Below, in pieces: positions 5,963 through 38,800 of a stretch of DNA of 50,771 nucleotides. The stretch is from assembly GCA_021844025.1 (NCBI GenBank), contig JAKBUF010000002.1, positions 1-50,771 of the forward strand. The letters are read 5' to 3'. Positions within the stretch are counted from its first letter, which is position 1, and each line of letters starts with the position of its first letter. Source of the DNA: a bacterium (GTDB lineage: Bacteria > Patescibacteriota > Minisyncoccia > UBA6257 > JAGOQP01). Made by a program: the position numbers and the translations under genes. Under the pieces are notes generated by a model. It saw only the letters and a program-made list of their open reading frames with translations. It was not told where the DNA came from and did no database searches.

Positions 5963-7108
5963 TTATGGGATAACCGTTCCCGGATTTTTTTCTTGTGCCC
6001 ACTCTACCACACGAGAGAGCGGAGTAGTGATTGCATCAACCGAGAACGAAGGGGTTGAAGTTGCCGTATAAAGAGTTACTACAACCGGCGAAGGATTTGC
6101 GTGCAGCGCATCAACGGGAATTGCCACTGATGAAATGAGCCCCCCTACCATGCATAAACGCCACGGGGTTTGCGCGGGAGTATATTGCGTATAGACGGGC
6201 GATCCTAACAACGTCGACATGAGCGGAGCTAAAACATTAGATTGAAATATTATTTTGTATTCCCGATCACACGAAGAAGCAGGAGAAACAAATGGAGAAA
6301 GATTTGTGTATGGTGTTTGCGCTAAAGCAAATGATTGTATGGCGCGTAACGGATCTATCTGTGTAAATGAGTGAAATATTCCCAACGATAATACGGCATC
6401 ACTAAAGCCGAATGCGCGCAACAGATGCACCTCCGCTGGCGCGGTTGAAAATTGTATCCACCGATTGTAGAGAAATGGATAGGGTAACGGGCCCTGAGCA
6501 ATATACATATATAAGGTATCGTGGCTATCGTGCACAATTGTAAACTGCCATGGGATCAGAGAATTTTTCTGCAAGAACATATCTATGCTTGCCTGAGGAG
6601 TGGGCTTTGAAACTACAGCCCCTCGCGCCGATACGGTGAGTGTATCTGAATTTGGTAATGAGAAAGTAGTAGTTGCCACTTTGTATGCAAGCACCGGCAC
6701 TTGTGATAAAGAAGTGAGCGCGCGATTAACTTGAGTTGTGTCTGCGGTTTGATACGCCCCAATTCCGGCTCCCAATGCCACCAATAGACTTACGATACCA
6801 CCACCAATAGCAATCGCAGCGCGACGGTGAGTTTTTGCCCATATTCGTATTCGGGTGGTTTTTGAAATTTGTGCGGTTGTGGGAAGTGTTTGTTGTAACA
6901 GTAAATCTTTTACACTTTTAATCCCTGCTTGTTCCAATACCACCGAGGCATCACGAGTCAGTAATCCCGCGTAATATAATTCATTAAACACCCGCTCAAC
7001 ATCGGAGGTGCTATGTCCTTGAGAAACCAGTGAACGAACTATCTCTCCCCGAGCAATTCCCCGGTGAGCCATATTAATAATTAATTGGTGCAATGCTTCA
7101 TCGTTCAT
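5963..7108 (-). CDS. membrane-anchored hypothetical protein
   Basis: 381-aa ORF with a cytoplasmic helical N-terminus, one TM segment (AIAIGGGIVSLLVALGAGIGAY) and an extracytoplasmic remainder. Confidence 0.65.
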   Translation of the reverse strand: MNDEALHQLIINMAHRGIARGEIVRSLVSQGHSTSDVERVFNELYYAGLLTRDASVVLEQAGIKSVKDLLLQQTLPTTAQISKTTRIRIWAKTHRRAAIAIGGGIVSLLVALGAGIGAYQTADTTQVNRALTSLSQVPVLAYKVATTTFSLPNSDTLTVSARGAVVSKPTPQASIDMFLQKNSLIPWQFTIVHDSHDTLYMYIAQGPLPYPFLYNRWIQFSTAPAEVHLLRAFGFSDAVLSLGIFHSFTQIDPLRAIQSFALAQTPYTNLSPFVSPASSCDREYKIIFQSNVLAPLMSTLLGSPVYTQYTPAQTPWRLCMVGGLISSVAIPVDALHANPSPVVVTLYTATSTPSFSVDAITTPLSRVVEWAQEKNPGTVIP

Positions 7109-7126
7109 ATTACTGGTACGGTGGTA

Positions 7127-8155
<1,029 letters not shown>

Positions 8156-8218
8156 TTACACGTGTTGAGCAAAAAACCACCACAAATGACTGCGGGTGAT
8201 TTTAAAAATATACACATA

Positions 8219-8491
8219 CTATCTTCCGGTAGTTGTGCTTGTGGTAGGAGAAGTATTTTGAGTAATTCCCAATTTTGAAAGATCCCCTACATTAAACTGC
8301 ACCACTGAAGTTTGTTGCGCTTGGGTGTCAATCGCCGAGTTTACCGTTTGAGATAAAAATGAAATAGAACCAATGAATATCCATAGAACCACAATTAGTA
8401 GAACAACTCCGGTTCCCACAAATAATATATCGTTTTTCTTACGATGAAAAAATTCTTTATTAAAAATAATTGATTTCGGAAGAAATGACAT
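8219..8491 (-). CDS. small membrane protein, hypothetical
   Basis: Start moved to MSFLPKS so it does not overlap the upstream gene. One TM segment and a Thr-rich tail. Confidence 0.5.
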   Translation of the reverse strand: MSFLPKSIIFNKEFFHRKKNDILFVGTGVVLLIVVLWIFIGSISFLSQTVNSAIDTQAQQTSVVQFNVGDLSKLGITQNTSPTTSTTTGR

Positions 8492-8501
8492 AGTAAAACA
8501 A

Positions 8502-9041
8502 TTAGTCGTGGAAAAATACTTTACCCGACACAAAGAATCGTGAAACGGCCGCGTTATTAGTAATACCCGTAGTTAAGTCAAATGATTGAATTTGCAAAGC
8601 GTAGTACGATCGTTCAATTTCTTGTAAGAACAAAAGAATGTCTTTGGCGTTTCCTTCAAGGGTCGCCGAAAAACCAATTGAAGCAATGCCATTTTGTTGC
8701 GGAGTCGTTTCACCAGCGGCGTTAAATGAAAACGCAATAGATACATTGTCTTTAAGTGCGCGGGTTTGTAATTCCTTTGACAACAAAACAATATCATCTT
8801 TTTTGGGAACCAATGCTTGCACTTGGGTGCTGTATTGTTTGGCAACATCCCAATCTTTTATGAGCAGCGCGAGCCCCTGAGAGGCTTGCGTGTACGAATT
8901 GCGGCGCTGTGCTAATTCCTGAATAACTTGAGATTCATGATTAATGTTCGCGCGAAACAGCAGTAAAAAAACCGCCAACAACACGATCACTATTCCCGTA
9001 CTTACTCCGCTTCGTATGATGTGTTTCTTAAAATCCGACAT
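8502..9041 (-). CDS. membrane-anchored protein, PilO-like (tentative)
   Basis: One N-terminal TM segment, then a coiled region and a small alpha/beta domain, the layout of PilO/PilN-type pilus assembly proteins. No decisive motif. Confidence 0.5.
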   Translation of the reverse strand: MSDFKKHIIRSGVSTGIVIVLLAVFLLLFRANINHESQVIQELAQRRNSYTQASQGLALLIKDWDVAKQYSTQVQALVPKKDDIVLLSKELQTRALKDNVSIAFSFNAAGETTPQQNGIASIGFSATLEGNAKDILLFLQEIERSYYALQIQSFDLTTGITNNAAVSRFFVSGKVFFHD

Positions 9042-9093
9042 ATATTCCGTGTGTTACCTTACCAATTCATGTATACTAAGCAGTATATACCTC

Positions 9094-9987
9094 ATGCTAG
9101 AAAAAAACAATTTTCCTATACAGCATGCTGACTCATTAGAAACTTGTTTTCCTGTTTATTTGCGTTCGCTCACACGTCCAGTCGCTCGTTTGTATTGGCG
9201 TGGCGATTTATCTGCCACCTGTCCACGCATTGCTATAGTAGGAACGCGCAAAGCATCTCCCGAAGGTAAAAAAATGGCGTATCATATTGCCTACACACTT
9301 GCGCGGGCCGGGTGGTGTGTAGTAAGTGGACTTGCGTTTGGTATTGATGCGGCAGCTCATCAAGGAGCCTTGGCCGCAGGAGGAATTACCTGGGCAGTAT
9401 TGGCACATGGACTTGATACTATTCAACCCAAAAATAATGCCGCGCTTGCTCACACCATACTAAACCAAAATGGCTGTCTTATTTCTGAGTACCCCGCAGG
9501 GACACCACCTCTTCCTCATCGTTTTTTGGAACGCAACAGAATTGTGAGCGGGCTGTGCGAGGCGGTTATTGTTATTGAGGCACCACGAGCTTCAGGATCA
9601 CTTGCCACAGCGCACCACGCACACGAACAACACAAACCGGTATTTGTGTTTCCTGGCCCCGCGACCAGTCCCTTGTACGCGGGATCCCATGAACTTATTC
9701 GCCAGGGCGCCCGTTTGGTACGAAATAGCGATGACATTCTACAAGATCTTGCCTCATATACCACGCAGACCGCGCTCCCCTCTATTCAAAAACACCAGTC
9801 CACCGCTTCACTACAACCCCTTGAAGAAAAAATTTTAGCTCATTTACGCGCTCATAAAAAAACGTTATCCATTGATACTCTCATAGATGAACTGGGAATT
9901 GCTTACCATGAAATTCAACCCGCGCTTGCGTCTTTATGTTCCACGCAACACATAAAAGAAATTGGTCCACAACAATATGAGGCATAA
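9094..9987 (+). CDS. dprA: DNA processing protein DprA
   Basis: GTRKASPEGKKMAYHIAYTLARAGWCVVSGLAFGIDAAAHQGAL matches the DprA Rossmann-like core. Start moved to ATG 9094 because the track start overlaps the upstream minus-strand gene. Confidence 0.85.
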   Translation: MLEKNNFPIQHADSLETCFPVYLRSLTRPVARLYWRGDLSATCPRIAIVGTRKASPEGKKMAYHIAYTLARAGWCVVSGLAFGIDAAAHQGALAAGGITWAVLAHGLDTIQPKNNAALAHTILNQNGCLISEYPAGTPPLPHRFLERNRIVSGLCEAVIVIEAPRASGSLATAHHAHEQHKPVFVFPGPATSPLYAGSHELIRQGARLVRNSDDILQDLASYTTQTALPSIQKHQSTASLQPLEEKILAHLRAHKKTLSIDTLIDELGIAYHEIQPALASLCSTQHIKEIGPQQYEA

Positions 9988-16184: not shown

Positions 16185-16234
16185 GAAAATTGGAAATTGC
16201 CGTGCCCTGTAGAGAATTTATTCTTCTACTGGGG
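16185..16234. repeat. GAAAATTGGAAATTG plus hairpin repeat (intergenic copy 1)
   Basis: GAAAATTGGAAATTGCCGTGCCCTGTAGAGAATTTATTCTTCTACTGGGG. It differs at a single base (T/C) from the 49 nt of 28640-28688. Confidence 0.85.
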
Positions 16235-16287
16235 TTGAAAGTTATCAAGTAATTTCTTTATAACTTTAGAACTTTCAACTTGATAAC

Positions 16288-17505
16288 TCATAGGTTCATT
16301 GTTCCATCCGCTTGTAGTGGATACATGTTTTGTGACGACTGATGCCGTATTCCTGCCGCTAACGCAATCATTGCCGCGTTATCTTGGCAATACATAAGCG
16401 GAGGTACTATAACAGTAGCCTGGGGAAGCGCAACTTGCAATAATTCGGAAAGTTTTTTATTTGCCGCTACTCCCCCACCCACACACACGGTTTGCGCTTG
16501 GTATTCTTGCGCGGCACGCGCAACTTTTGCAACCAATGGCGCAAACGCCGCTTCTTGAAATGATGCGGAAATATCTTTTTGTAATTGAATGGGAATTTTT
16601 TTCTTTTTGAAAACCGCGGAAGGTGAATAATTATCTACATTCACTCCCTGCGAGCGTAGGTAATATAATACGGCGGTTTTTAGCCCCGCGTAACTAAAAT
16701 TATAATTTTTTTGATGTATCATGGGGCGAGGAAATTGGATTGCTTCTTTATTTCCTTCCTGCGCCAACTGTTCAATAAGCGCTCCCCCAGGATACGGCAA
16801 ACCTAATAAACGCGCCACCTTATCAAATGACTCCCCCACCGCATCGTCAACCGTTTCCCCTAACTTTTCGTATTTGGTAAGTGAATGCAATACCCCTAAA
16901 ATGGTATGCCCGCCACTCACGATAAGAGAAATCATGGGAAATAAGTGGTTAGTGGTTTTCTCTTTTTTGAGATTTTGAGTTTCGGATTTAATTGAAAATT
17001 GGAAATTGCTGCCCCCTGTAGTGAACTTTGTTCTACTACTGGGGAAAATTGGAAATTCAGTTTTCTCTGCTAAGAGAAAACTGTAGAGATGTCCCTCTAA
17101 ATGGTTCGCTCCCACCAGAGGAATGCTCTTTTTAAAATATGTCTCGTGAATTTCTTGCGCAAATTGAATTCCTGTCCACAGTGCCGGCTCAAGTCCGGGA
17201 CCAACCGTCACTGCCAATAAGTCAATCTCTTTATTTTTTACCTCTTTTATTTTTTGCATCTGTCTCCATAAAATCGGCAAATTTTTAATATGCTCTCGTT
17301 TTGCCAATGTAGGGACCACACCCCCAAACGGCGCGTGTAACTTTATTTGTGATGCCACTAAATTTTTCTCCACCGTAACTATAGGTAAAATATATTTTCC
17401 TTCTTTGTCCGCTTTTATCCGCGTTGCATCCGCATGCATCTGCGTCACTTGTACAAGTGAGAAAGAAGTCTCATCACAACTCGTCTCTATGGCCAAAATC
17501 CTCAT
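16288..17505 (-). CDS. tsaD: tRNA N6-adenosine threonylcarbamoyltransferase TsaD, carrying an in-frame repeat insertion
   Basis: MRILAIETSCDETS, HLEGH and SGGHT motifs. Start taken at ATG 17505; the track's 57-aa N-terminal extension has no TsaD counterpart. Confidence 0.9.
   Translation of the reverse strand: MRILAIETSCDETSFSLVQVTQMHADATRIKADKEGKYILPIVTVEKNLVASQIKLHAPFGGVVPTLAKREHIKNLPILWRQMQKIKEVKNKEIDLLAVTVGPGLEPALWTGIQFAQEIHETYFKKSIPLVGANHLEGHLYSFLLAEKTEFPIFPSSRTKFTTGGSNFQFSIKSETQNLKKEKTTNHLFPMISLIVSGGHTILGVLHSLTKYEKLGETVDDAVGESFDKVARLLGLPYPGGALIEQLAQEGNKEAIQFPRPMIHQKNYNFSYAGLKTAVLYYLRSQGVNVDNYSPSAVFKKKKIPIQLQKDISASFQEAAFAPLVAKVARAAQEYQAQTVCVGGGVAANKKLSELLQVALPQATVIVPPLMYCQDNAAMIALAAGIRHQSSQNMYPLQADGTMNL
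16994..17057. repeat. repeat element inside the tsaD coding frame
   Basis: GAAAATTGGAAATTGC-TGCCCCCTGTAGTGAACTTTGTTCTACTACTGGGG-AAAATTGGAAATTC. A hairpin core flanked by 13-nt direct repeats, translated as EFPIFPSSRTKFTTGGSNFQFS. Confidence 0.8.
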
Positions 17506-17695: not shown

Positions 17696-18862
17696 CTACC
17701 GTATCACCCCTCCCCCCAGTACTGCCCCCTTTTTATCATAAAACACCACCGACTGACCTTCAGTTGGGAAAAGTTTATATTGGCTCTTTTTTTCTGGGTA
17801 TATAGTTAATACCTCCTCACGCATAATTACCCGTGCCTTAAATAAGGGCTGACGATACCGCACACGAGCAAACACAAAAACCTCTTCCCTGTTTTGTAAT
17901 TTATTTTTAAAATTCTCGTCTAAGAAATTTATTTGCTTGGCAGTAAAAATACTTGTATACAATGCCACATCTCCTTCCGGAGCCACCGTAATGGTATTTT
18001 TGTGCACGTCACGTGCTACTACAAACAACTCATGCCCCGTTGCATTATGAAATCCGTGCCGTTGCCCTAAGGTGTATAAAACTGCTCCCTCATGTGTACC
18101 AATTTTTTTCCCGCTAGTATCTATTACATCTCCCTGGCCATAGGGAATGTGTTGTTTAAGAAAATCAACAAACGAAAATTTTCCTAAAAAACAAACTCCC
18201 TGTGAATCTTTTTTGGTTGCGGTAAATAGCCCCGCCTTTTTTGCCAACGCGCGAACACGAGATTTTTTCAGTCCGCCAATTGGGAATAGTATCTTAGAAA
18301 ATCGCTCTCGAGGTATTTGCCATAGAAAGTATGACTGATCCTTGTTTGCATCCTTCCCCGCCTGTAATTTATATTTCGGTCCAATTGAAAATTGCCTCTC
18401 TGTGGGAGGTCTACCAAAGGGAGAAAAATTGAAAATTGAAAATTCGCGACAAAGTCGCGCATAGTGCCCCGACGCAATCGCATCCGCACCTAGCTTTATA
18501 GCTGCCTCATACAACAATCCAAATTTAATTTCACTATTACATACCACGTCCGGGTTTGGCGTAATTCCCTGCGCATATCCGTCTAATAAATATTTTACCA
18601 CCCGATTATAGTATTCTTGTTCAAAATCTAAAACATAAAAAGGGGTGTGTAGGGTTTCTGCCACCCGCCGCGCGTCGTGCGCTTCTCTGTCTTGGCATCC
18701 ATCTACATTATACCCCCGTATAAAAACCCCAAAAACCTCATACCCTTGCTTTTTGAGCAGATACGCAGCCACCGACGAATCCACTCCGCCTGATAACGCA
18801 ACGAAGACTTTAGGTTTAAGAGTGGTATCGGTATTCTTGTGTTTTGTCCAAATTCTTTCCAT
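17696..18862 (-). CDS. mnmA: tRNA 2-thiouridine(34) synthase MnmA; native 5' end displaced by the insertion
   Basis: PP-loop VALSGGVDSSVAA and KDQSYFLW motifs. The upper coordinate is the first in-frame ATG upstream of the PP-loop and is element-derived. The frame stays open further up into the recombinase. Confidence 0.85.
   Translation of the reverse strand: MERIWTKHKNTDTTLKPKVFVALSGGVDSSVAAYLLKKQGYEVFGVFIRGYNVDGCQDREAHDARRVAETLHTPFYVLDFEQEYYNRVVKYLLDGYAQGITPNPDVVCNSEIKFGLLYEAAIKLGADAIASGHYARLCREFSIFNFSPFGRPPTERQFSIGPKYKLQAGKDANKDQSYFLWQIPRERFSKILFPIGGLKKSRVRALAKKAGLFTATKKDSQGVCFLGKFSFVDFLKQHIPYGQGDVIDTSGKKIGTHEGAVLYTLGQRHGFHNATGHELFVVARDVHKNTITVAPEGDVALYTSIFTAKQINFLDENFKNKLQNREEVFVFARVRYRQPLFKARVIMREEVLTIYPEKKSQYKLFPTEGQSVVFYDKKGAVLGGGVIR
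18383..18445. repeat. degenerate repeat element inside the mnmA coding frame
   Basis: AATTGAAAATTGCC-TCTCTGTGGGAGGTCTACCAAAGGGAGA-AAAATTGAAAATTGAAAATTCG, translated as EFSIFNFSPFGRPPTERQFSIG. Confidence 0.65.
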
Positions 18863-20548
18863 TTTTGTTTGATTAATCGGACCGAGCGTGGCACCCGCAT
18901 TAAAGGTTCCGGGAAGGTCTTTTCTGCTGATTTCCCGTTCCTCAATTTTGTTGGGGAATGGTATTGTGGCAAAAATCTTGATCTTCTCGCCTTCTATGAC
19001 CACCTCATCGATTATAAGTTTGATAATATCTTTTTTTAGCCGTTCTGTCACGATTTTTGGATCGTTTATCTTACTCAAAAATCTATGGCAAGTTCCTTGA
19101 AAAAGGTCTATTTTGGCATTTACATTGTGTTGGACATTTAGTTTGTTCATCAAACCATCTCTTTCACTGATCAACTTTTCCTCACTTAGCTCAATGTCAG
19201 TTTTCTCTTTTCTGAATTCCGGAAGCGTCATAGCTTCAGCTTTGAACGCTTCGGTGATTCTTTTCTTGGCTACTTCAAGTTTGTTAATAGCACTGTTGAT
19301 ATAATCCAATCTTCCCTCTATGCTTTTTGCCCGATCTTCGTTTAGGACCGACTCATCTCGAAAAGCATTGAATACTTCCTCCGGACTGCTCAAAATTGAT
19401 TTGACCGCATTCCAGACTATTGGCTCTATTTGATCGGCTCGCACATATGGACTATGGCAGTTTTCCTGCGGAGTATTATTCATGCGACTTTTGCAGTAGT
19501 AATAAATAACACCGCTTTTTTCTTGATGACCGCGATAAACAAGCCCGTCTTTACCGCAACGGATCAGCCCTTGCAGTAAATAGGTTTGTTTGGTGCATCG
19601 TTTGGCAAACATCAGATTTTTTCTAGCCTGAAGCAAAGCTTTTTTATGCTGTTCCTCCGACACAATCTTTGGTATTGCTATGGGAAACCATTCCTCCCTC
19701 GGTCTTTTCAGTTGTCTGACTTTTGGCTTGCCTGTTCGTAAGTTGGCTACTTCAAGCTTCATTGTGTAATTCTTGCAACAATGCCAGCTTCCGGTATATG
19801 CCTCATTGGCCAAAACATTTCTTATTGTTACCTCGCTCCACCAGCCAATTGGGTATTTCTTCAAGCCTTTCATTTTCTTATTCTTTTCGGTGTTTTTCAG
19901 ACCGTCATATTTGGTTGGGATTTTTAGCTCGAAGAGTTTTGCTTGGATTTGCCGGATATTCAGCTTATCCTCGGTATACCAGTCATAGATCATTTTTACG
20001 ACTTTGGACTCGTTATCATCGAGTTCGTGTTTACCTTGTGCATAATTATATTTATAACCGAAAAGCGGCCGACCGCCGTTAAACTTCCCAGACTCAATTC
20101 TTCTTTTCATTCCTCGATGGGTTCGCTCCATAATTTTTGCTCGTTCAAATTCGCTGAATGCGCTCAGGATCGTAAAGAGTAGCTTGTCATTTGGTGTCGT
20201 ACCCAATTCTCCGGTCTTGAAGTGAATGGTGATATTTTTCTTCTTCAGTTCCTCAAGAATAATAAGCTGGTTGTATGTGTCTCGACCGATTCGATCGGCA
20301 TCATATACCAAAAAATACCCGACATCATCATGGGTTTTTATGTAATCCCGTAAAGCAGTAAGAGCTGGACGAATTAGAGTCGCTCCAGAGAATCCATCAT
20401 CAATAAAAACCATAGATTCATCTGGGACCGGTAACTTGTGGTTGTTGGCATACTGCAACATTCCACCAATGCCGTGAATTTGAGTATCTATGGTTTGATT
20501 ATTCTTTTGTTCCTCGGTGGATACCCGAGCGTATAGTACTGATTTCAT
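18821..20548 (-). CDS. large serine recombinase (integrase); no stop codon of its own, frame continues into mnmA
   Basis: Resolvase catalytic start MKSVLYARVSTEEQ, recombinase and zinc-ribbon region (CGKDG...YYYCKS), coiled-coil region, about 576 aa. A GTG start at 20581 is also possible. Confidence 0.9.
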
Positions 20549-20630
20549 ATTCTTATACTTATTTTTTGATTCACAACACACCCTACTCTATTTTTGACAA
20601 CAAGCTAAGTGTTAGTTGCCCACAGGTGCT

Positions 20631-21173
20631 TTACCGACTTTTTCCCGTCGCCACCCAGTCCAAAATCTTTTCCTCAGCTTCTTTTGGGTATTGATCTCTG
20701 GAAAGCTGTAACCGCATTTCATAGGGAATAATGTTCCAGCGATCCTCAACGGACAACTCAGCCAATTCTTCTTCACTGACGTGAATAGTTTCTTTCGGCT
20801 TGCCCTCGACCCGATCCAGTATTTCTTTTATCGCAGCTAATTTTACGGTATCGTTTGAGCTTCCCATAAGGGCAATGAGCATTTCGTTGGCTAGGCGGAA
20901 ATTTTGCTCTCTGACTCTGGCTCCGGCACGGCGGATGATAGACATTGTCTCAATATGAACCTTGTCCATTTCGGCTTCATAAAGGCGATAATCCTCACAA
21001 AGTGTTCCTGATTCCTTGAACCAATCTTTGATATTTTGTTCGCTAAATATGCCATTTCTACTTTTTGGCCACTTCTTGTTTAGAGTTTCAGCAATGCTTT
21101 GATATGAATTACCCTTATATTTCAACTCCAAAGCTAGTTTATGACTCGGTGATAAGTGTTTAATTTTTGGCAT
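20631..21173 (-). CDS. HTH protein, small-terminase-like or regulatory (tentative)
   Basis: N-terminal HTH-like segment (KLALELKYKGNSYQSIAETL). The internal motif VKLAAIKEILDRVEGKP is shared with the next ORF. Confidence 0.55.
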   Translation of the reverse strand: MPKIKHLSPSHKLALELKYKGNSYQSIAETLNKKWPKSRNGIFSEQNIKDWFKESGTLCEDYRLYEAEMDKVHIETMSIIRRAGARVREQNFRLANEMLIALMGSSNDTVKLAAIKEILDRVEGKPKETIHVSEEELAELSVEDRWNIIPYEMRLQLSRDQYPKEAEEKILDWVATGKSR

Positions 21174-21185
21174 AAAAAAGTGGAG

Positions 21186-21395
21186 TTAAGTAGAGTTTTT
21201 CTGACCTCTTTTTGGCACGATTATTGCCGGCTTTCCGTATACCCGATCAAGAATGTAGATCGCCGCCTCAAGCTTCACCATGTCGTCTTTGCTTTTTAGA
21301 AGTGAGACCAGAACCTCGGCCGCTTTTACGACATTTCTCTTGAACATATTTATGGCGTTTTCCATTTCTTCGCTGTATTTATTGTTTTTATTCAT
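21186..21395 (-). CDS. small protein sharing the VKLxA...ILDRVxGKP motif
   Basis: MVKLEAAIYILDRVYGKP parallels the motif in the product of 20631..21173. Confidence 0.5.
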   Translation of the reverse strand: MNKNNKYSEEMENAINMFKRNVVKAAEVLVSLLKSKDDMVKLEAAIYILDRVYGKPAIIVPKRGQKNST

Positions 21396-21397
21396 GG

Positions 21398-21886
21398 TTA
21401 TATTTTCATTGAATTTATTAATACTTCTTTATCCCTCACCAACGCATCAAAGGACTCGGTCTCGTGTTCTTCTGCACAAGTTCGTAGATATCGAAGTTCG
21501 TCTAAGGCACTTTGTCTGTTGCACCAATCCTCGTATGTCTTGAGATTGGGACCGACCGCCCAATACGCACCGGGAATATTGTGTTTTACATATCGGCGAG
21601 ATATAGCTCGAGTTTCCAGTAAGTGTTGAACTATACCGGCGTCGGTCAGTCCGGTAACGTTGTTGTATACTCGTCTGGGATTTTGGCTTTCTGGAAATTC
21701 TCGGCCACCCATTCTGAAGGTTTTTATTATTAGTTTTGGTTCGCCATAATACTCCAACGAGTTTTTAAGTGGCACAGTTTTTAACTGTTCAAGCAAAGTC
21801 TCAAAATCTCTGATCTCTTTTCTAAACTTAGGATTATCCAGATCACATCCGCTTTTTATATTCTCTTGTTTTTCAGTGTATTTCAT
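21398..21886 (-). CDS. hypothetical protein (element)
   Basis: 162-aa ORF whose start overlaps the upstream gene's stop by 4 nt. No motif recognised. Confidence 0.6.
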   Translation of the reverse strand: MKYTEKQENIKSGCDLDNPKFRKEIRDFETLLEQLKTVPLKNSLEYYGEPKLIIKTFRMGGREFPESQNPRRVYNNVTGLTDAGIVQHLLETRAISRRYVKHNIPGAYWAVGPNLKTYEDWCNRQSALDELRYLRTCAEEHETESFDALVRDKEVLINSMKI

Positions 21887-22650
21887 ACGATGAATTTAAA
21901 GAGGGTTTCCAGAGTATATTTCTTAAGCCAGCCGGCTTTGACTGCTTCTTGGATTTTCTTAAATCCCTCGATCAGTCGTTTATCCTCAAAGGGTTCAAGG
22001 TTCTTGGCTGGTCTGACATTTCGTCTGATAAAAGCCTCCCACTGATTTTTGGTTTGAAAATCCGGTTCGATCGTATCTGCCCAGTTGCCAATAATGCGAA
22101 TATGTTTATGGGGGCTTGTCTCGCACCATTTCACAAATTCTTTGAGTGTCATCGGGACCTCGGCGATCTGTGCTTTAACTTCTTCTTTCTTCTTCAAGGG
22201 TTCTTCTTTGTGCTCAATGGTTGAACGCTTATCGTTCACCAGTTGCGCGCTTTCATTCATTGGTTGAATGCTTAAAGGTAAGCGTTCACCATTTGAACGC
22301 TTTGATTTTTCCTCGTAATGCCTGATATTCAAAGACCACAAATCAATGATCCGGTATTCGATCGTCTGCTGATTTGTCTCTCCGGTGGCTCTTTTACCGA
22401 TAACCTCAATCCAACCTCGCTCGACCAGCTTTTTCTGATACTTGGCTACGGTGTTTCTTGAGCAATCCAATCTTTTAGCAATTTCCATCGCCGACATCCA
22501 GCACGTGCCTTCTTCGCCAGCCACGCGCTTCATGTATAAATAAATGGCCTGTTCGTAGACCGTCGAATGATTGACGATGTAGTTCGGGATAATCGTGAAG
22601 TATTTCCGGTCTCCGCTTTTGTCTATGATCTTGAATGGGTCGTTTCGCAT
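21883..22650 (-). CDS. winged-HTH protein, replication-initiator or organiser-like (tentative)
   Basis: FTIIPNYIVNH...YLYMKRVAGEEGTCWMSAMEIAKRLDCSRNTVAKYQKKLVERGWIEV is a typical N-terminal wHTH of plasmid and phage replication proteins. Confidence 0.6.
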   Translation of the reverse strand: MRNDPFKIIDKSGDRKYFTIIPNYIVNHSTVYEQAIYLYMKRVAGEEGTCWMSAMEIAKRLDCSRNTVAKYQKKLVERGWIEVIGKRATGETNQQTIEYRIIDLWSLNIRHYEEKSKRSNGERLPLSIQPMNESAQLVNDKRSTIEHKEEPLKKKEEVKAQIAEVPMTLKEFVKWCETSPHKHIRIIGNWADTIEPDFQTKNQWEAFIRRNVRPAKNLEPFEDKRLIEGFKKIQEAVKAGWLKKYTLETLFKFIV

Positions 22651-22654
22651 AGAT

Positions 22655-22915
22655 TTATTTTGACTCGTGCAAAAGAGCCTTGAGTTTACGGATAGCGGAA
22701 ATGAAATCCCTCACACTGACTTCAGCATCCTCGGCAAAGTTATATTCATCAGTGAGTATCTGTCGGCTTGGCGAGTCAATAAACACAAAGGACCGACGAT
22801 CTAAATCATCGGTTTGATCTAAACCAACCAGCTGGATACCTTTGGCCAACAAAAAACAGCTCAAATAGAAGCTGGTGGTGCTATATGTTGGCGTGTTTGA
22901 TTTTTTGGTTTTCAT
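22655..22915 (-). CDS. small phage/plasmid-type protein (DUF5659-like, from memory)
   Basis: Start taken at MKTKKSN. FYLSCFLLAKGIQLVGLD...FVFIDS resembles the DUF5659 pattern and needs HMM confirmation. Confidence 0.45.
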   Translation of the reverse strand: MKTKKSNTPTYSTTSFYLSCFLLAKGIQLVGLDQTDDLDRRSFVFIDSPSRQILTDEYNFAEDAEVSVRDFISAIRKLKALLHESK

Positions 22916-23069
22916 AGTTATTTTTATTGTTAATTTGATTATTTTTATTGTTTTCCGGTTCTGGTAATGCAAGCAATAGATCCCACAGCTGACGCAGTCG
23001 GTCTTTCTTGTCTGGCGATTCCCTATAAATAAATTCCGTTTGGAATTTAGGAAATCTTTTTATTCTCAT
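22881..23069 (-). CDS. small ORF at the head of the replication/regulatory operon (weak)
   Basis: 62 aa with a low-complexity Asn/Lys tail. It overlaps the next start. Confidence 0.3.
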   Translation of the reverse strand: MRIKRFPKFQTEFIYRESPDKKDRLRQLWDLLLALPEPENNKNNQINNKNNYENQKIKHANI

Positions 23070-23089
23070 CTTGATTTTTTTACATAAAA

Positions 23090-23139
23090 CGCAAAAAGCT
23101 CGCGATCGATTACCACAAATGTGATATCCAATCGCGAGC
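23090..23139 (-). terminator. putative terminator after the envelope-protein operon
   Basis: 9-bp stem GCTCGCGAT/ATCGCGAGC (23098-23139), followed on the minus strand by TTTTTGCGTTTTATG. The 24-nt loop is long for an intrinsic terminator. Confidence 0.4.
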
Positions 23140-23262
23140 CCTTGAACTCGGAATCCCTTTCAGGTCTGCCCCGTGAGGCAAAAATTTATTTAGTTGTTAC
23201 AGTTATTATAACATTGTCTGAAAATTCTTTGCAAGAAGATCGGCTGTGTATAAATATCATAA

Positions 23263-23979
23263 TTAGAAAATATCGTCAGGAGAACTTTTGGCTAATTCAC
23301 TTATTTCATTCTCCAACCTAGAATATTCTTCCTTAGCTTGTTCTTTGGAAATATCCTGCTCCCATTGGGAGTGCAAAAGCCCTTCAATAAAAGGACTTTT
23401 GCTTTTAAGTCTATCCTGGTGAATCCTTTCCAAAACTAAAAGTTTTTTAGTCCATTCATTTAGCTTTGGTAAATCATTGTTTAGAAGATAGTCCATCTTA
23501 CTTGCAAGAAAAGTAAAATTTACAGGCACTACGGGCTGACCATTTATATATAAATCCTCAAGGCGTGTCAGCGTGTGGTTGGTAGAAATTATATTGAAAT
23601 TCAGTCGGTCTATACTCATCCGATATGAAAAAACTTTGTTAGTTAAATCCAAACTACCTAACTCCATTTCGATTTCTTCAGGTATAGCAAACGTACTTAA
23701 TCTATTGCTAGTAGTGTGATTCTTTTTTAGAGATGCTGAAGTATCTTTTATTACAGTTTCAATAACACCAAACTCGTGAAGGTGTTTCATTAGTACTCTA
23801 TCCAACTTAACTAAAGTATTTTTATGCTGAACAAAACGTTCGCGCCGTTTGGTTATCCAGTATGCAATAAGCCCAAAAACAAAAGCAAAAAAGGCACCGG
23901 CAAACGCACCCCAGAAACTTGAAAGGCCTGCTGAATCGTTAGAATGATTAAGGAAGTGGTGGTAATAATAAAAATCCAT
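23263..23979 (-). CDS. N-terminally anchored membrane protein, unknown function (element cargo)
   Basis: One TM segment (FWGAFAGAFFAFVFGLIAYWI) followed by KRRERF, which suggests a cytoplasmic C-terminal domain. Confidence 0.7.
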   Translation of the reverse strand: MDFYYYHHFLNHSNDSAGLSSFWGAFAGAFFAFVFGLIAYWITKRRERFVQHKNTLVKLDRVLMKHLHEFGVIETVIKDTSASLKKNHTTSNRLSTFAIPEEIEMELGSLDLTNKVFSYRMSIDRLNFNIISTNHTLTRLEDLYINGQPVVPVNFTFLASKMDYLLNNDLPKLNEWTKKLLVLERIHQDRLKSKSPFIEGLLHSQWEQDISKEQAKEEYSRLENEISELAKSSPDDIF

Positions 23980-23985
23980 AAAGCA

Positions 23986-24786
23986 TTACTGCGTCAGCTT
24001 ATAGGCTTTCTGTTCTTCATAGGTTTGAAATGTGAGACTTAATTGAAGAACTTTTGCCGCCAAAAGGTAGGTATTCTTATTGTAATCATTGAGAGAAGAT
24101 CCGAACGCTCTCTGAATTTCGCTAATGAGATCCTGTCGTTGGCTTGACGACAATGAGTATTTAATTGGACCCGTGGCCTCGCCTTGCTCAACAGGTAACT
24201 GAATCAAACCTTTGGTAATGACGAGAAGGATTTTGTTTTGGAACAGATCTTTTTGAAGTGTATCCTGTGCCGCGGCGTATTGTGCAATATCGTACTTTAT
24301 TTGTTGTGGATTAAGCGTATCTGGTGTTGCGGTACGCAATGCTTCACTGATCTTTTGATTAGCGTTTTTTAATGTAAGAACATCAGCGTAAAGTAAAGTC
24401 GTGACAGACTTAATGCTGTCATCTTTATCATTAACATATGACTGCAAAGAAGACACTGCACCCATGAGGTCTGAGTCAATCCCTAACATTGCTGTTGTTT
24501 GTTGTATATCCTGTGAAGACGTGGGGTATCTAGTCTGAGCGTCAGTCAATTCTTGAGTTGTAAGATAAAGACTATGTAGTACATTAATTATCGAGGATAA
24601 ATAGGAATACATGTGATCCGCAGACGCACTTACTTGCCCATTCGTCTTATTTTCTACAGCAGAAACATTTCCATTTGTAGTTGAGGATTGAGTTGCAGAA
24701 TTGCTAGAACTTTGCCAAGAAAAATAAATAATCGCTAAAATGATAATAATGATAACTGCTATTCCAACTGATGTTTGTTTTTTCAT
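23986..24786 (-). CDS. anchored or secreted protein, unknown function (element cargo)
   Basis: N-terminal TM or signal segment (VGIAVIIIIILAIIYF), a Ser/Thr-rich linker and a helical remainder. Confidence 0.7.
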   Translation of the reverse strand: MKKQTSVGIAVIIIIILAIIYFSWQSSSNSATQSSTTNGNVSAVENKTNGQVSASADHMYSYLSSIINVLHSLYLTTQELTDAQTRYPTSSQDIQQTTAMLGIDSDLMGAVSSLQSYVNDKDDSIKSVTTLLYADVLTLKNANQKISEALRTATPDTLNPQQIKYDIAQYAAAQDTLQKDLFQNKILLVITKGLIQLPVEQGEATGPIKYSLSSSQRQDLISEIQRAFGSSLNDYNKNTYLLAAKVLQLSLTFQTYEEQKAYKLTQ

Positions 24787-24793
24787 AAGTTTT

Positions 24794-25738
24794 TTATGGG
24801 GTAGAAATTTTATTTGTATCTAAATGAACAGTCAAAGAGGGGCCCGAATTCGCTGAATTAATATGGACAGTACTTAAATCGACAAATGCAATGTCTGTCG
24901 GCCATTCATACATATCGGATGGAACATAGAGGATAAAATACTTACCTTGCGTCTTATCAAGACCAACAACCACTCCTTTGAAGTACGAGACGAATTTATA
25001 ATTGTTGTTTTCTAGCGAACCAGTGACTGTCGTCCCGTTCCATTGGTCGAACAAATTTGTGTCATAGTAAGTAAACTTCACCGGTACGGCGTAGTTCATC
25101 ATGGCAGTCCAAATGTTTTCGTTATCGAGTTGCCATTTTTGAACGGCATTATCAGCGGAATTTACATCCAAATTTTGCTGACTAGTATGGGCAATCTTAG
25201 GTGATTCTGCTATTTGCTGAGTGAGATAATCATATACAGCTTTATTGCTCTGTACGTCGCTATTTACCTGACCGGGTTGATTTATATTTCCATTTCCACC
25301 TGAAACACTCATGCTGTACAGGTGTGCCTGTGATGGCGAAAAAAGATTAAATGCAACTGTTCCAGCCGCACTTCCATAACTTTCCGTTACGAAGTAAATA
25401 TAATACGAACCACCGAGCTTAACTTTCTTTGCATCTGACGGACATTCTAGTGTTCCACAAACAATTTGGACCGATTCTGATTGTTCTTGCCATAAATCCG
25501 CAACTTGTTTCAAAACCAAAAGCCGTGACTCGTTATATTTACCATCAGCAATACTTCCAACAATGTAATAATCGCCGTTATCTCGGACCGCAATAGAGAA
25601 CGTTGGATTTTTTACATATTGATGTTGGACAATTTGAGCCGCTTCTTGATCCGACATCGTTGGCTTTTCATAAAAAGCAAAAAATGCACCGACAGCAACT
25701 ATGACGATAACTATTCCGATCCAGCTTTGTTTATTCAT
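24794..25738 (-). CDS. anchored or secreted protein, unknown function (element cargo)
   Basis: N-terminal TM or signal segment (WIGIVIVIVAVGAFFAF) and a beta-rich remainder. Confidence 0.7.
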   Translation of the reverse strand: MNKQSWIGIVIVIVAVGAFFAFYEKPTMSDQEAAQIVQHQYVKNPTFSIAVRDNGDYYIVGSIADGKYNESRLLVLKQVADLWQEQSESVQIVCGTLECPSDAKKVKLGGSYYIYFVTESYGSAAGTVAFNLFSPSQAHLYSMSVSGGNGNINQPGQVNSDVQSNKAVYDYLTQQIAESPKIAHTSQQNLDVNSADNAVQKWQLDNENIWTAMMNYAVPVKFTYYDTNLFDQWNGTTVTGSLENNNYKFVSYFKGVVVGLDKTQGKYFILYVPSDMYEWPTDIAFVDLSTVHINSANSGPSLTVHLDTNKISTP

Positions 25739-25743
25739 AAAAT

Positions 25744-26919
25744 TTATTTAAATAACCAGCTAAACATTCTCTGATACCACGGTATATTGTTTCCTGCCCC
25801 TGAACCAGATTGAGTAGTGGTTGCGTCTTTTTTGACCGATAAAGTAGGAGTAATTACTTTGGTCTCTGTTTTAGGCGGAGTCGGTGTTGAGATTGTTGGT
25901 GGCGGAATACATGCTGTTCTTGCACTATTCCATACATAGTTGGTTTTACAATTGCAGTTTAAGTTTCCATCATTCGTCTTTGTGCCGTCCCAGCTAACAT
26001 TTACTCCAAAATCATCTTGGCAGAGTTGGTCATTTGATTTAATTGGGACAACAGGTTCAATTATGCAACTTGTCCTCTGGGTATTCCAAATGTAGCCGGT
26101 TTTGCAACTGCATCCCAATCCTTTTTCAACAGTGCCAGTTCCATCCCAATTACTATTTATTCCAAATTCATCATTACACCTTTGATCATTTGTTTTGTTG
26201 GGAACAGGGACGCAACCATCGTTCGTTGTATTAGGCTGATATCCAGTATTACATTGGCACTTGGTTGAGTCGGTGACTGAGGTATGTGAATTAATCGGAC
26301 AGGTATTTTGAGGTGCTGAATATGCTGATGTGTTTGAATAAGAAGTTCCTTGATATACACAGCTTGAACCACTTACCACATAGCCATAATTACATTTGCA
26401 CGATGATACCCCATCATAATAAGAATTGAGTGGGCATGTGGGCGTTGTGGGAGCAGTATAAGTTCCAGTATAAACACAACTTGTCTTGTTGTAATTTACG
26501 CTATAGCCGTAATTACATGAGCATTTACCAGACGAATTAGCAGAAGAATTCGCTGGACAAGTGCTGTATGTATTTCCACTTCCGTATGTCGTATTGCCGA
26601 TAGATTGATAGCTACTACCATCGCTTCCATATATTGAATTTCCTATGCTTTGATAAGAAGTGCCGTTGCTACTATAAGTCGTATTACCGATCTGTTGATA
26701 GGATGTTCCGTCATTGCCGTATGTTGTATTTCCGATGGTCTGGTAACTACTTCCGTCACTCCCATATATCGAGTTACCGATTTGCTGATAACTAGTCCCA
26801 TCATCGCAATATGTTGAATTTCCTATTCTTTGACAACTTGAGGCAATAACATCATTTGCGTTGAATGCAAACAGAGTAAGAAAAAATAAAATTGGTATAA
26901 AAAATATTATCTTTTTCAT
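25744..26919 (-). CDS. secreted repeat protein: 15-aa tandem repeats plus EGF-like Cys-rich modules
   Basis: Signal peptide. Then (SYQxIGNxxYGxDGx) six times, then CPxNS...CxCNYGY...C three times and NDQxC.DxFG.N..WDG....C.CKT.Y.WN...T.CI twice. ATG 26919 follows a GAGG; the track used a GTG at 26928. Confidence 0.75.
   Translation of the reverse strand: MKKIIFFIPILFFLTLFAFNANDVIASSCQRIGNSTYCDDGTSYQQIGNSIYGSDGSSYQTIGNTTYGNDGTSYQQIGNTTYSSNGTSYQSIGNSIYGSDGSSYQSIGNTTYGSGNTYSTCPANSSANSSGKCSCNYGYSVNYNKTSCVYTGTYTAPTTPTCPLNSYYDGVSSCKCNYGYVVSGSSCVYQGTSYSNTSAYSAPQNTCPINSHTSVTDSTKCQCNTGYQPNTTNDGCVPVPNKTNDQRCNDEFGINSNWDGTGTVEKGLGCSCKTGYIWNTQRTSCIIEPVVPIKSNDQLCQDDFGVNVSWDGTKTNDGNLNCNCKTNYVWNSARTACIPPPTISTPTPPKTETKVITPTLSVKKDATTTQSGSGAGNNIPWYQRMFSWLFK
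26566..26835 (-). repeat. 45-bp (15-codon) tandem repeats inside the secreted-protein gene
   Basis: Period read from the translation: S46, S61, S76, S91 and S106 each begin SYQ.IGN..Y. Confidence 0.7.
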
Positions 26920-26924
26920 AAACC

Positions 26925-27146
26925 TCACTTAATAAAATAGTTGATGTCTTTGTTGTAGATTTTCGCAAAAGTTTGGAGTTCAACAACGTCAACCCTTTGC
27001 TGTCCCGACTCAACATTAGAAATGTGCGATTGTGGTCGCCTCAATTTCTTAGCGACTTGCACCTGAGTCAATCCTGCCTCTTCACGAGCCTTTCGCAGTC
27101 GCTCGACAAAATAGGCGTATTCCTTTGTTCTTATTGACCTAGTCAT
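26925..27146 (-). CDS. XRE-family HTH transcriptional regulator
   Basis: LTQVQVAKKLRRPQSHISNVESGQQRVDVVEL is a typical Cro/CI-type HTH. Its stop lies 5 nt before the next start. Confidence 0.85.
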   Translation of the reverse strand: MTRSIRTKEYAYFVERLRKAREEAGLTQVQVAKKLRRPQSHISNVESGQQRVDVVELQTFAKIYNKDINYFIK

Positions 27147-27216
27147 ATACTACTATGTTCTATCTAAATATTCAATATCCAAAGTTTAGATATTGTGTAT
27201 ATGAGCCAAAAACGCT

Positions 27217-35801: not shown

Positions 35802-38800
35802 CTACACCTTCCCCATTTTTCGTACTGCCATCCATAACCGTTTGCCGTCTAGTTTTGTTTCAATCTCAGCATCAAACTTATCCATCTTTCCTACGGTAAT
35901 CGCGTGCGCGCCCACTTCTTTGCGCAAAAATGATTCGTGTGTCTGAACCATGGCCTCAATATCTGCGGTACTGGAAAGAGATAAAATAATAGTATCCTTG
36001 GGTACATATCCTGCATCTTGCCGTAAGTCTTGAATTGCACGGGTAAGTTCGCGTAGCAATCCTTCAGTTTTTAATTCGGGGGTAATGGTAGTGTCCAGCA
36101 CAAATTGTTCCTCAAGCGATTCTGAGAATACTAACTCTTTTACATTCACCTCATCACAAATAATATTAATTATATCGGGTACAAATGATCCTTTTGGTTT
36201 TTTTCCTTTCACTGTTAGCCGCGCTAAGGGCTGACGTACTTTAATTTGTAATTCTGCTCGTTTTGCAAGCGCTCCACTGGCAAGTTCCCGCGCCCATTGC
36301 ATAACTTCCAATAAAGCTTTGTCTGACGCATTTGTTTTGGTGCGCGGCCATACCTCCAAATGAACGGAATCTTTTCCGGGAAATGTATATTCTTTATGTA
36401 GCGATTGATATATGCTCTCTGCAAAAAATGGCACAAACGGAGCAAGCACCTTTGAAAAATCAAGGAGCACCGAAGCAAGCACACTCGATACTGTTTTTAG
36501 TTCTGTAGCATTTTCTGGCTTTTGAAAACGACGCCGCGACCGGCGAATATACCAACGAGACAAATCATCTACAAATGTTTCTATGTGGCTGGTGGCGCGT
36601 GTAATATCATATGAATCCATAGCTCCCTCCACCTCACGAGCCATGCCTGCGCACCTGGCTATAATCCATCGATCCAAAACCGACAATGAGCCGTTTGTTT
36701 TGTATAAAGAAAGTTTTTTTGCGCCATACAACCCCAAGAATGCATACGAATTATATGCCACCATTAAAAATCGCCGGAACGCTTTTACCAATTCCGCCTC
36801 ATCAAAGTTTTTTGGCTCTCCGGGAGGATTCACGGTGTAAAAATACCAGCGAATAGGATCGGCTCCGTATTTTTGCATAAGCATCCACGGGTCAACTACA
36901 TTTCCTTTTGACTTTGACATTTTCTGCCCGTTTTTATCGTGAATCAGTCCCAAACAAATCACATTTTTATAGGGAGTTTCTAGTCCTAATGCAGTTGCCA
37001 CAGCTAACAAGGTATAAAACCATCCGCGAGTTTGGTCTACCGCTTCCGAAATGTAATCTGCTGGGTATCTAATTTTTTTAATTGCATTTTTAAATTCGTT
37101 TTCTCTTTTTTGTTTTAAATTTTCAGATTTATTCGGAAATTGGAAATTGGAAATTGGAAATTGCGCAAATGGAAAATACATTTGCGCGTACGGCATTGCT
37201 CCCGAATCAAACCATACATCGGCAACTTCTTTTACCCGCTTCATTTCTGTTCCACACGTTTCGCAGGTAAAGGTGAGCTCATCAATATACGGACGGTGTA
37301 GATCTCCCATACCTCGCTGATCACGCGACAACGCCGCATAGGAAACAACATCAATATGAGCGGTTTTAAGAAAATCATCACCTCGTTTATTTTTTTCTGC
37401 AACACTTTCTTCCTGACTCCATCCTTTCAGCACGGTTTCTAACATCCATAATGGATAATCATGACTTACTACTAAAATAGTTTTCCCCGCATGGGTTTTT
37501 TCTATTTCTTTTACAAAATCAAACATACGACTTGCTACATCCGTAAGTGTTTCTCCTTTTGCGGGTGCTTTGGAAAAGCGATCGTCGTAGGTTGGGAATA
37601 GCGCATCATATCTGCTTACTGACTGGCCATCCAGCTCTCCTAAAAAGATTTCGCGTAATCGTTTGTCTATTTTTACTTTCATACCCAACGCTTCTCCCAC
37701 CATGTTTGCGGTTTGGTGGGTTCGATATAAATCCGAACATAGAATCAGATCAACCTTTTTTGTTTTTAGATCTTTGATAGTCCTACGCACCTGCGCTTCT
37801 CCTTTTTTAGTAAGTGGAAATTGTTCACTCTTTTTTACATCTCCACTAATAATATTTTTTACATTATGGAGCGCTCCCCCGTGGCGCATGAGTATATAGG
37901 TATTGGTGGATTGGGGTTGAGTAGATTCCAGTTCCGCACGAGAACCAATCACTCGCGTGTGTCCCTGCGCGCAACGCCATATAGGTAGGGGGGTACCCCA
38001 ATATCGTTCCCGTGAAAAATTCCAATCTTTAACATCTTTTAACCATTCTCCAAAACGACCCTCCTTAATATGAGCGGGAACCCAATTTACTTCATTATTT
38101 GACTGTAATAATTTTTCTTTTAGTCGCGTCATTTCTACAAACCACGATGATCGGGCATAGTATAAAAGCGGCGTGGAACAACGCCAACAAAACGGGTATT
38201 CGTGTTCATAGGGCACCTGCGCTAAGAGCGCGTTGTGTTCACTTAAGTATGCTAAAATCTGTTTTTCGGTTTCTACACCTTTTACAAATTTACCCCCTAA
38301 ACCCGGCACTTCTGTTTTAAACTTCCCCGCTTCATCAACGGTGTGGTGTTGTGGTAGCCCAATTTTTTTTCCTAACTGATAGTCATCGTCTCCATACATA
38401 ACTGCGGTATGTACTATTCCGGTTCCATCGGTCGTAGTCACAAAGTCTGCCGCATATACTTTATACGCAGTTTCGGTTTGTAATTTTGGAATATCAAACA
38501 ACGGCTCGTACTCCAATCCAATCAAATCTTTGCCCTTAATATTATCCTGGACTACCTCAAAAGGTTTGTTGGGGAAAATTGAGTTTGTTAAATCAGACGC
38601 TAAGATATAATTTTCATACTTTCCACTTTCAACTTTTAACTTTATAACTTTATAACTAATATTCCCCCCCACCGCCAACGCCACATTTCCAGGCAACGTC
38701 CATGGAGTTGTAGTCCATGATAGTATATAAGTATCTTTCCCAATTTTGAGTTTTGAGTTTTGAGTTTTGAGTTTAAACTTAATGTACACCGATGTGTCCG

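Follow-up and report, generated by a model that had tools for sequence, protein, structure and literature searches.

The DNA analysed here, a 50,771-nt stretch of a Patescibacteriota contig (JAKBUF010000002.1, assembly GCA_021844025.1; hereafter the window), carries inside its tsaD gene a hairpin-forming segment at 16994-17057 that is very probably composite: a tandem array of heptamers into which was inserted a 36-nt copy of a tiny palindromic mobile element, scattered across the candidate phyla radiation (CPR). The first-pass annotation, which quoted the letters of this segment correctly, had taken it for a repeat of the host lying in frame in tsaD. On the coding strand the segment is laid out as GAATTTCC AATTTTC, CCCAGTAGTAGAACAAAGTTCACTACAGGGGGCAGC, AATTTCC AATTTTC AATTAAATCCGAAACTCAAAATCTC..., and the features on which the argument depends are listed below.

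16288..17505, minus strand: coding sequence of tsaD, the host gene (405 aa from MRILAIE; Pfam PF00814, 7e-75, matched in two stretches split at the insert)
17044..17057, minus strand: heptamer pair on the 5' side of the hairpin, sense GAATTTCC AATTTTC, translated EFPIF
17008..17043, minus strand: 36-nt hairpin unit in tsaD, sense CCCAGTAGTAGAACAAAGTTCACTACAGGGGGCAGC, translated PSSRTKFTTGGS (TsaD residues 155-166); covariance match 17006-17048, 53 bits, E 5e-9
16994..17007, minus strand: heptamer pair on the 3' side of the hairpin, sense AATTTCC AATTTTC, belonging to the pre-existing 7-nt tandem array and not to the insert
16958..16993, minus strand: A/T-rich tail with a decaying 7-nt period, sense AATTAAATCCGAAACTCAAAATCTCAAAAAAGAGAA, translated IKSETQNLKKEK; a homologous peptide is present in P0002
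16199..16234, minus strand: intergenic hairpin copy between the tsaD stop and ftsW/rodA, sense (C)CCCAGTAGAAGAATAAATTCTCTACAGGGCACGGC; covariance model 53.5 bits
28654..28687, minus strand: 34-nt hairpin copy directly after the efp stop, sense CCAGTAGAAGAATAAATTCTCTACGGGGCACGGC; covariance model 52.3 bits

Three homologous copies of the hairpin are therefore present in the window, one in tsaD (17008-17043) and two intergenic (16199-16234 and 28654-28687). The relatedness of the tsaD segment to the intergenic stretches at 16185-16234 and 28640-28700, proposed earlier from the letters alone, was borne out by two methods: a repeat search joined the three loci into one 71-nt family, in which the tsaD copy is 66% and the efp copy 92% identical to the tsaD-ftsW reference copy, and a covariance model built from hairpin copies of other genomes scored 52-53.5 bits at all three (E 4e-9 to 7e-9), with no further match above 17 bits in the rest of the window. 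The similarity is not due to chance, since the 16-mer GAAAATTGGAAATTGC occurs exactly three times in the window and not once in 100 dinucleotide-preserving shuffles; the 13-mer with up to two mismatches occurs 26 times versus 9.1 +/- 3.4 expected. The tsaD copy folds at -16.7 kcal/mol (z = -6.2), and the predicted folds agree with the consensus structure. It belongs to the common CPR subtype (GTAGT/ACTAC, GAAC/GTTC), and both intergenic copies to a rarer one (GTAGA/TCTAC, GAAT/ATTC), so that this genome carries two lineages of the element. The tsaD hairpin is also found in strain L189, and the 16199-16234 copy, which is followed by AATTTCC AATTTTC (16185-16198), is identical in that strain and absent at that position in two more distant relatives, L001 and L002. 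Abutting the latter copy, directly after the tsaD stop (16236-16290), two inverted repeats lie in rearranged form, GTTATCAAGT-TGAAAGTT ... ACTTGATAAC-TTTCAAC, with the order A B ... A' B' instead of A B ... B' A'.

The mobility of the hairpin was observed downstream of efp. In strains with identical EF-P the site is empty and reads ...TTTCAATTTCCAATTATC|AATTTCCAATTTTCAATAAAT..., both heptamer pairs being adjacent, and the filled site, found only in the window and L191, contains exactly 34 extra bases at the bar, namely CCAGTAGAAGAATAAATTCTCTACGGGGCACGGC. The empty form was seen in sister strains L190, L192, L193, L194, L196, L197 and L198, in at least 7 contexts; L189, one of the strains with identical EF-P, has a TsaD that is 98% identical. 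In the window the inserted copy is bordered by heptamer pairs at 28640-28653 and 28688-28701, is followed by a separate classical terminator and is identical at 33 of 34 positions to the tsaD-ftsW copy about 12.4 kb away. The efp copy is thus a recent, precise copy-in event without target-site duplication. The flanking direct repeats were considered as such a duplication and rejected: both are already there in the empty site, so they are neither a target-site duplication nor a part of the mobile unit. The same holds in tsaD, where L001 and L002 (TsaD 72 and 71% identical, respectively) lack the hairpin and have at the insert site only the array, AATTTCT AATTTCT AATTTTC AATTTCC without interruption in the former and (AATTTCC)x4 in the latter, which means that the 36-nt unit encoding PSSRTKFTTGGS sits in the middle of a pre-existing repeat. 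The AAAATTGGAAATT flanks, initially counted as part of the inserted element, have to be assigned to this array, and the mobile piece is the hairpin with its 5-6-nt tail, 34-36 nt in all, a length fixed by the empty and filled efp sites, by an insert in TopA and by the 36-nt period of a tandem array (both described below). The nucleotide-level, in-frame insertion into tsaD proposed at first stands, on the grounds of DNA homology to the intergenic copies, of absence from the tsaD of relatives, of in-frame retention in all near-identical TsaD proteins and of a place in a predicted disordered loop. It also holds that the two flanking repeats are read differently (EFPIF versus SNFQFSI), since these 14-nt repeats lie 50 nt apart and consequently fall in different frames. 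Hairpin positions, too, differ between the window and the relatives with 71-72% identical TsaD.

The heptamers invite an explanation that needs no dedicated enzyme, in which gene conversion or replication template switching between dispersed arrays, with the shared AATTTCCAATTTTC flank as homology, would have moved the hairpin. All three window copies indeed have GC-AATTTCC-AATTTTC-A on one and the same side, the new efp copy landed in a heptamer array and is nearly identical to the nearby copy, and copies in a Falkowbacteria genome also lie among heptamers (AAATTAC). However, the efp insertion has next to no homology on its other flank, and the in-gene copies of other CPR (TopA, GyrA, RsmA and others) have neither repeat flanks nor flanking direct repeats. 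Near-identity across distant lineages would, moreover, be hard to keep without a sequence-specific agent, and the enzyme-free route is considered unlikely.

Heptamer arrays are found in the window also apart from the hairpin. The tail together with the adjoining heptamer pair (16958-17008) is 76% identical to ileS 37099-37149, in a frame common to both (NFQFPNKSENLKQKRE), and two in-frame arrays were recorded:

18380..18446, minus strand: similar architecture in mnmA, (AATTTTC)n + 30-nt core + AATTTTC, translated EFSIFNFSPFGRPPTERQFSIG
37131..37163, minus strand: (AATTTCC)x4 array in frame in ileS, translated QFPISNFQFP, without the hairpin unit

The heptamer architecture is common to these inserts and the tsaD segment, but neither the mnmA nor the ileS insert was matched by the covariance model and no homology was detectable for the mnmA core; as hairpin copies both were rejected. 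Further A/T-rich arrays with a 7-nt period are translated in essential genes at 38618-38643 and, in ileS, at 38741-38774, and ileS contains (AAACTCA)x4 besides (AATTTCC)x4, as well as a 9-bp inverted repeat within its conserved PYAQ..FPF coding motif. Such arrays are odd in coding DNA because a change of one unit shifts the frame.

At the protein level, matches to TsaD structures in the PDB are split at the insert just as the Pfam match is. The closest named homologues come from metagenome-assembled genomes of the Parcubacteria/Paceibacterota type, to which the host also belongs. The insert lies between the HLEGH and SGGHT motifs, which are 57 residues apart, as the first reading of the sequence had it; Thermotoga TsaD (6NAK) has about 5 residues where the window TsaD has 42. 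In the AlphaFold2 model (predicted template modelling score 0.80, core predicted local distance difference test, pLDDT, about 90), the entire insert (residues 148-185) lacks secondary structure, at pLDDT 27-33; it is preceded by the helix that follows HLEGH and succeeded by the strand that leads to SGGHT. Mapping onto the structure, which had been suggested as a check, thus put the insert in a low-confidence loop between well-predicted core elements, and the hairpin insert is predicted to form a disordered surface loop compatible with the fold. A second lineage-specific insert of low confidence, ADATRIKADKEGKY, occupies residues 24-38 in the N-terminal region (window ~17392-17436) and varies in length among relatives.

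One may ask whether this is simply a lineage-specific TsaD loop selected for protein function, the similarity of the DNA being secondary. The HLEGH-SGGHT loop is hypervariable among Parcubacteria TsaDs, as such a reading would have it. The insert is kept in frame with an intact open reading frame (ORF) in 7/7 near-identical (>=97%) TsaD proteins from separate assemblies, one tail codon varying (G/R), which speaks for its being tolerated. The comparison with relatives, also proposed at the outset, gave a different picture beyond these: the hairpin is missing in L001 and L002, its peptide is absent from 22/22 other TsaDs aligned, those with 71-72% identity included, and at 64-67% identity the insert region is mostly missing altogether. 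Unrelated genes contain the same 36 nt as well, read in either orientation and in more than one frame, the stem pairs covary, and the peptide is predicted to be disordered. Selection for a TsaD loop is by these observations effectively refuted. Strains P0123 and P0124 have an extra 7-residue duplication (NHLPLTA) beside the main insert.

The hairpin is not peculiar to this host, as was first thought, since it was found across many CPR lineages and in many housekeeping genes. An exact-pattern scan with 21 specified bases was run over species-representative genomes (one per species) and metagenomes; it returned 52 loci in the former, versus about 1 expected by chance (arithmetic from the 21 specified bases and the collection size), and at least 120 loci in the latter. 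The 52 loci have host labels that include Falkow-, Moran-, Sacchari-, Doudna-, Wolfe-, Nealson-, Lloyd- and Levyi-bacteria, Kazan, Paceibacterota and unclassified Patescibacteria, with a few contigs labelled non-CPR. Among the matches listed there are 154 non-redundant copies from many Patescibacteria lineages, and the same scan of viral contigs gave no match. The conserved form is CCCC-A-GTAGN-A-GAAN-loop-N'TTC-N'CTAC-GGGG with a short tail (CAGGC, CTYCGC, CACGGC or TAAA), that is, a 13-bp stem with two single-A bulges on one arm and a variable loop of 2-4 nt. In the 154 copies pairing is kept by covariation wherever the pattern left a position free: at GTAG[N]..[N']CTAC (TA 93, CG 44, AT 5, GC 1), at the apical pair (CG 109, TA 17, AT 7, GC 6) and at the outermost pair, which alternates between CCC..GGGG (94) and TCC..GGGA (18). 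The family has the look of an element that spreads and not of an old signal of the host, because it is near-identical in distant lineages, occurs in few CPR species and takes positions that are not conserved among close relatives. [quoted passage not shown]

Variants of the hairpin were also noted. In L106, L129, L139, L144, L151 and L159 an outer stem (CCCCAGTAGNAGAGC ... GCTCNCTACGGGG) holds a complete inner hairpin in its loop, which represents either self-insertion of the element or a two-tier subfamily. Four loci labelled Verrucomicrobiota/Kiritimatiellae (L008, L037, L043, L105) have a perfect-stem version followed by a second related hairpin, and in L037 this pair begins at the 3' CCA end of a tRNA-Asn gene.

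Copies inside genes make up 21-29% of the 154 (33 by a strict count in open frames of at least 180 aa, 44 by greedy gene calls), and Pfam confirmed around them GyrA, TopA, RsmA/KsgA, GrpE, thymidylate kinase (Tmk) and GT4 glycosyltransferases. Every in-gene copy found leaves the reading frame open, and the clean cases add 36 nt, or about 12 hydrophilic residues; the TopA of L030, for instance, when set against those of L002 and the window, contains one clean insert of 12 residues, AEPRSERSSTTG (36 nt). In-gene copies have CTYCGC as a 6-nt tail, so that their unit measures exactly 36 nt, and intergenic ones mostly 5-nt or other tails. Sense copies in genes read PSSRTxFxTG (the tsaD type) or PVVEQSSLRG, and 19/24 antisense copies, counted from the listed peptides, read [AK][EKA]PRSExxS[AT]TG or a one-residue variant of it. 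One ORF of 410 aa holds two hairpin copies. In the loci examined no hairpin separates two halves of one gene. Ribosomal bypass of the insert was therefore rejected; the absence of split genes and the in-frame position of all copies suggest instead that insertions which break the frame are lost and that the ribosome translates the inserts.

In the GluRS C-terminus of one contig (L098) at least three identical 36-nt units stand in tandem and in frame. Units of this length recall TIGR-Tas systems, which consist of 36-nt units in stem-loop arrays with variable dual spacers and a Nop-domain tas gene and are known in Patescibacteria (bioRxiv 10.64898/2026.09.09.750476). Unit length, hairpin, CPR hosts and the tandem array at L098 would fit guide-RNA units of such a system, but the hairpin units are near-invariant and lack variable spacers, copies occur singly and scattered, and the only array is made of identical units within GluRS. 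No neighbouring gene recurs, hence there is no tas gene, and this origin is extremely improbable.

A role in RNA was also considered, i.e., that the hairpin is primarily a stabiliser of mRNA 3' ends or a processing or termination signal, the genic copies, tsaD included, being accidents. Intergenic copies between co-directional genes are sense in 34 cases and antisense in 15 (p = 0.009); their median distance from the upstream stop is 76 nt, and in-gene copies show the reverse ratio, 16:28 (Fisher p = 0.002 versus intergenic, with heuristic gene calls). Both intergenic copies of the window are sense and lie in the spacers directly after the tsaD and efp stop codons. On the other hand, the stem is followed by tails such as CAGGC, CTYCGC and CACGGC and not by the U-tract of an intrinsic terminator, G-U wobbles show no strand preference (12 versus 8), and many copies are antisense or stand between divergent promoters. 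The hairpin is patchy among CPR, with presence and absence varying within a species, and Rfam gave no match at the hairpins (the window at gathering and E-value thresholds, and 8 loci), yielding only two tRNAs in the window. As a primary explanation an RNA signal is possible but doubtful; it is, however, compatible with a selfish element, as is the case for REPs.

What moves the hairpin is a separate question. REP-associated tyrosine transposases (RAYTs) suggest one answer, namely that the hairpin is a REP-like substrate moved in trans, as single-stranded DNA, by domesticated Y1 (HUH) transposases of the CPR. The hairpin has the size (34-36 nt) and imperfect palindromy for it, GTAG in the conserved stem and precise insertion without target duplication. 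Patescibacteria have a large Y1_Tnp family (at least 7750 matches; the top 120 at 55-81% identity, most about 60%), whose best NCBIfam match is 'REP-associated tyrosine transposase', yet with scores under the curated cutoff. Six Y1 genes lie in the ~1.1 Mb of DNA flanking hairpins, one small cluster of the neighbouring ORFs is a Y1/RAYT-like transposase, and at the P0127/P0128 loci hairpins occur 140-430 nt upstream of the Y1 gene. None of the Y1 genes examined, however, is bordered by the studied hairpin: they have on both sides palindromes of their own (CCAAGGGnnnCCCTTGG, ACGAGACCCGGnCTCGT, CATAGGGTTACCCTATG and others; at L184 only the upstream copy is evident). The covariance model found no hairpin near 5/6 homologues examined, and near P0127/P0128 the hairpins are not adjacent. 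The window has no Y1 gene, copies show no clear orientation bias against GC skew (sign 33:22), and the share of intragenic copies is unlike that of REPs. Y1/RAYT proteins were thus tested as the cognate mobiliser and not supported, one homologue search and 6 contigs showing other flanking palindromes, and their involvement is not likely. The Y1 (IS200/RAYT-like) loci themselves (L175-L188, L080, L118, L138, L151, L170) often adjoin a small TPR-like gene and carry a clade-specific short palindrome, e.g., TATCCAAGGGnnnCCCTTGGATA.

The best reading remains a new, recently active, selfish palindromic element akin to REPs and to the Rickettsia palindromic elements (RPEs). The segment would combine two components: a tandem array (AATTTYC)n, lying in frame in the variable TsaD surface loop of the genus and also in IleRS, MnmA and intergenic DNA, and a 36-nt palindrome (hairpin plus 5-6-nt tail) inserted in the middle of it. 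The element copies itself into new sites precisely and without target-site duplication, and its intergenic copies occur in either orientation. As selfish DNA it would be purged wherever it breaks a frame, the 12 residues in TsaD would be tolerated rather than useful, and sense copies directly downstream of genes may also act as RNA 3' hairpins. The copying agent may be a transposase of the single-strand hairpin (HUH/Y1) type that acts in trans; the other candidate is template switching, hairpin-primed or homology-driven, or gene conversion.

Several points weigh against this reading. No mobilising enzyme was found, and all-against-all clustering of 987 neighbouring ORFs gave no recurrent partner family. 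In this species AATTTCCAATTTTC adjoins each of the three copies on one and the same side, which homology-driven copying or a sequence-specific target fits as well as transposition does. The patchy distribution derives from an exact-pattern scan, so that copy numbers and host range are those of pattern matches, and gene calls in loci outside the window are ORF heuristics. Translation of the insert is deduced from conservation of the frame, and the orientation split, sense between genes and antisense within them, hints at an RNA-level role beyond a selfish model. Taken further, the hairpin may be the smallest known active bacterial mobile element (34-36 nt), shared across much of the CPR, probably by horizontal spread or through a conserved trans-acting enzyme, and a general source of short lineage-specific loops in the housekeeping proteins of these bacteria, with intergenic copies co-opted as RNA 3' hairpins; this wider proposal is put forward only tentatively.

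Other loci of the window and of a sister strain have unusual insertions of their own. At about codon 12 of mnmA there is a mobile element of ~9.7 kb (18818-28500), whose large serine recombinase (Resolvase, Recombinase and Zn ribbon) reads in frame into MnmA as a 961-aa fusion ORF (17696-20581, minus). In strain L193 the mnmA site is empty, efp being followed by an intact mnmA, and the junctions show a 17-nt overlap. The element carries a Fic gene (27302-28234) and a 394-aa ORF (25744-26928) with five tandem 45-nt (15-codon) repeats at 26577-26836, 64-74% identical to the reference copy. In ileS (35802-39407, minus) a complete His_Phos_1 domain (4.6e-34; residues ~505-667) stands in frame within the IleRS catalytic domain, between the conserved 'IWRC..G..IGS' and 'DLHRPYID' segments. 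In sister strain L189, mnmA and tsaD are separated by a cassette resembling a diversity-generating retroelement (bAvd and RVT_1 reverse transcriptase, 7070-9910); the window, with an mnmA-tsaD gap of 190 nt, lacks it.

In-frame selfish palindromes have been a curiosity of essentially one genus, Rickettsia, and here the same process would operate with a smaller unit, of 12 codons, readable in both orientations, amplifiable in tandem and spread over a large section of the bacterial tree that is little understood. Its recent activity in one species, together with the copies inside genes, offers a concrete origin for short insertions in essential CPR proteins, and annotators should treat such inserts as repeats and not as protein features. 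The sequence and structure signature of the hairpin provides a handle for finding the mobilising machinery. The element is previously undescribed, CPR-wide, 34-36 nt long and apparently active, adding 12-residue loops to essential proteins.

Among known systems, the RPEs come closest in behaviour, being palindromic repeats inserted in frame in unrelated housekeeping genes and present in intergenic DNA, with a fold-compatible peptide and no known transposase (PMC10969869). The hairpin is likewise in frame in tsaD, TopA, GyrA, RsmA, GrpE, GluRS and GT4 genes and has intergenic copies. RPEs are ~100-150 bp long, encode ~30-50 residues and are confined to one genus. The hairpin, in contrast, has 34-36 nt and 12 residues, is read in either orientation and occupies many lineages of another phylum; size and host, not sequence alignment, set the two apart, and kinship in sequence is not expected. 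The comparison with RPEs made in the first-pass annotation is consequently right as to the in-frame insertion and wrong if membership of the RPE family is meant. Yeast mitochondrial GC clusters and 'byp' elements are mobile hairpins of ~27-55 nt that invade protein-coding genes, and ribosomes skip over byps, for which an in-frame position is not required. A very short mobile hairpin in coding genes is common to both cases, but here split genes are absent and all in-gene copies keep the frame, which makes translation of the insert, rather than bypassing, most likely. MITEs have terminal inverted repeats derived from insertion sequences (IS) and target-site duplications. Bacterial MITEs such as Correia, ERIC and RUP are small non-autonomous repeats, sometimes intragenic and in frame (PMC10969869). 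The hairpin is several-fold smaller, no IS-like neighbour recurs, and the empty efp site, in which both heptamer pairs are present, shows no target duplication. With IS200/IS605 elements the hairpin has in common the hairpin-defined ends and the precise insertion or excision without target-site duplication, as seen at efp. These elements move by 'peel and paste' into a fixed target of 4-5 nt and are biased in orientation towards the template of the lagging strand. No clear sign of either was seen for the hairpin: in all copies pooled no replication or transcription orientation bias was found (GC-skew sign 33:22), and the three copies of this species abut AATTTCC but flanks differ in other genomes. 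No TnpA is adjacent. REPs are extragenic and flank their RAYT gene. The REPs and REPINs are resembled by a ~35-nt imperfect palindrome in many copies, often directly downstream of genes, without target duplication and in hosts rich in RAYT-like Y1 genes, and differ in that 21-29% of the hairpin copies are genic and the CPR Y1 genes are bordered by other palindromes. The hairpin element is thus neither an RPE nor a REP: it works like the former and is like the latter in size and form.

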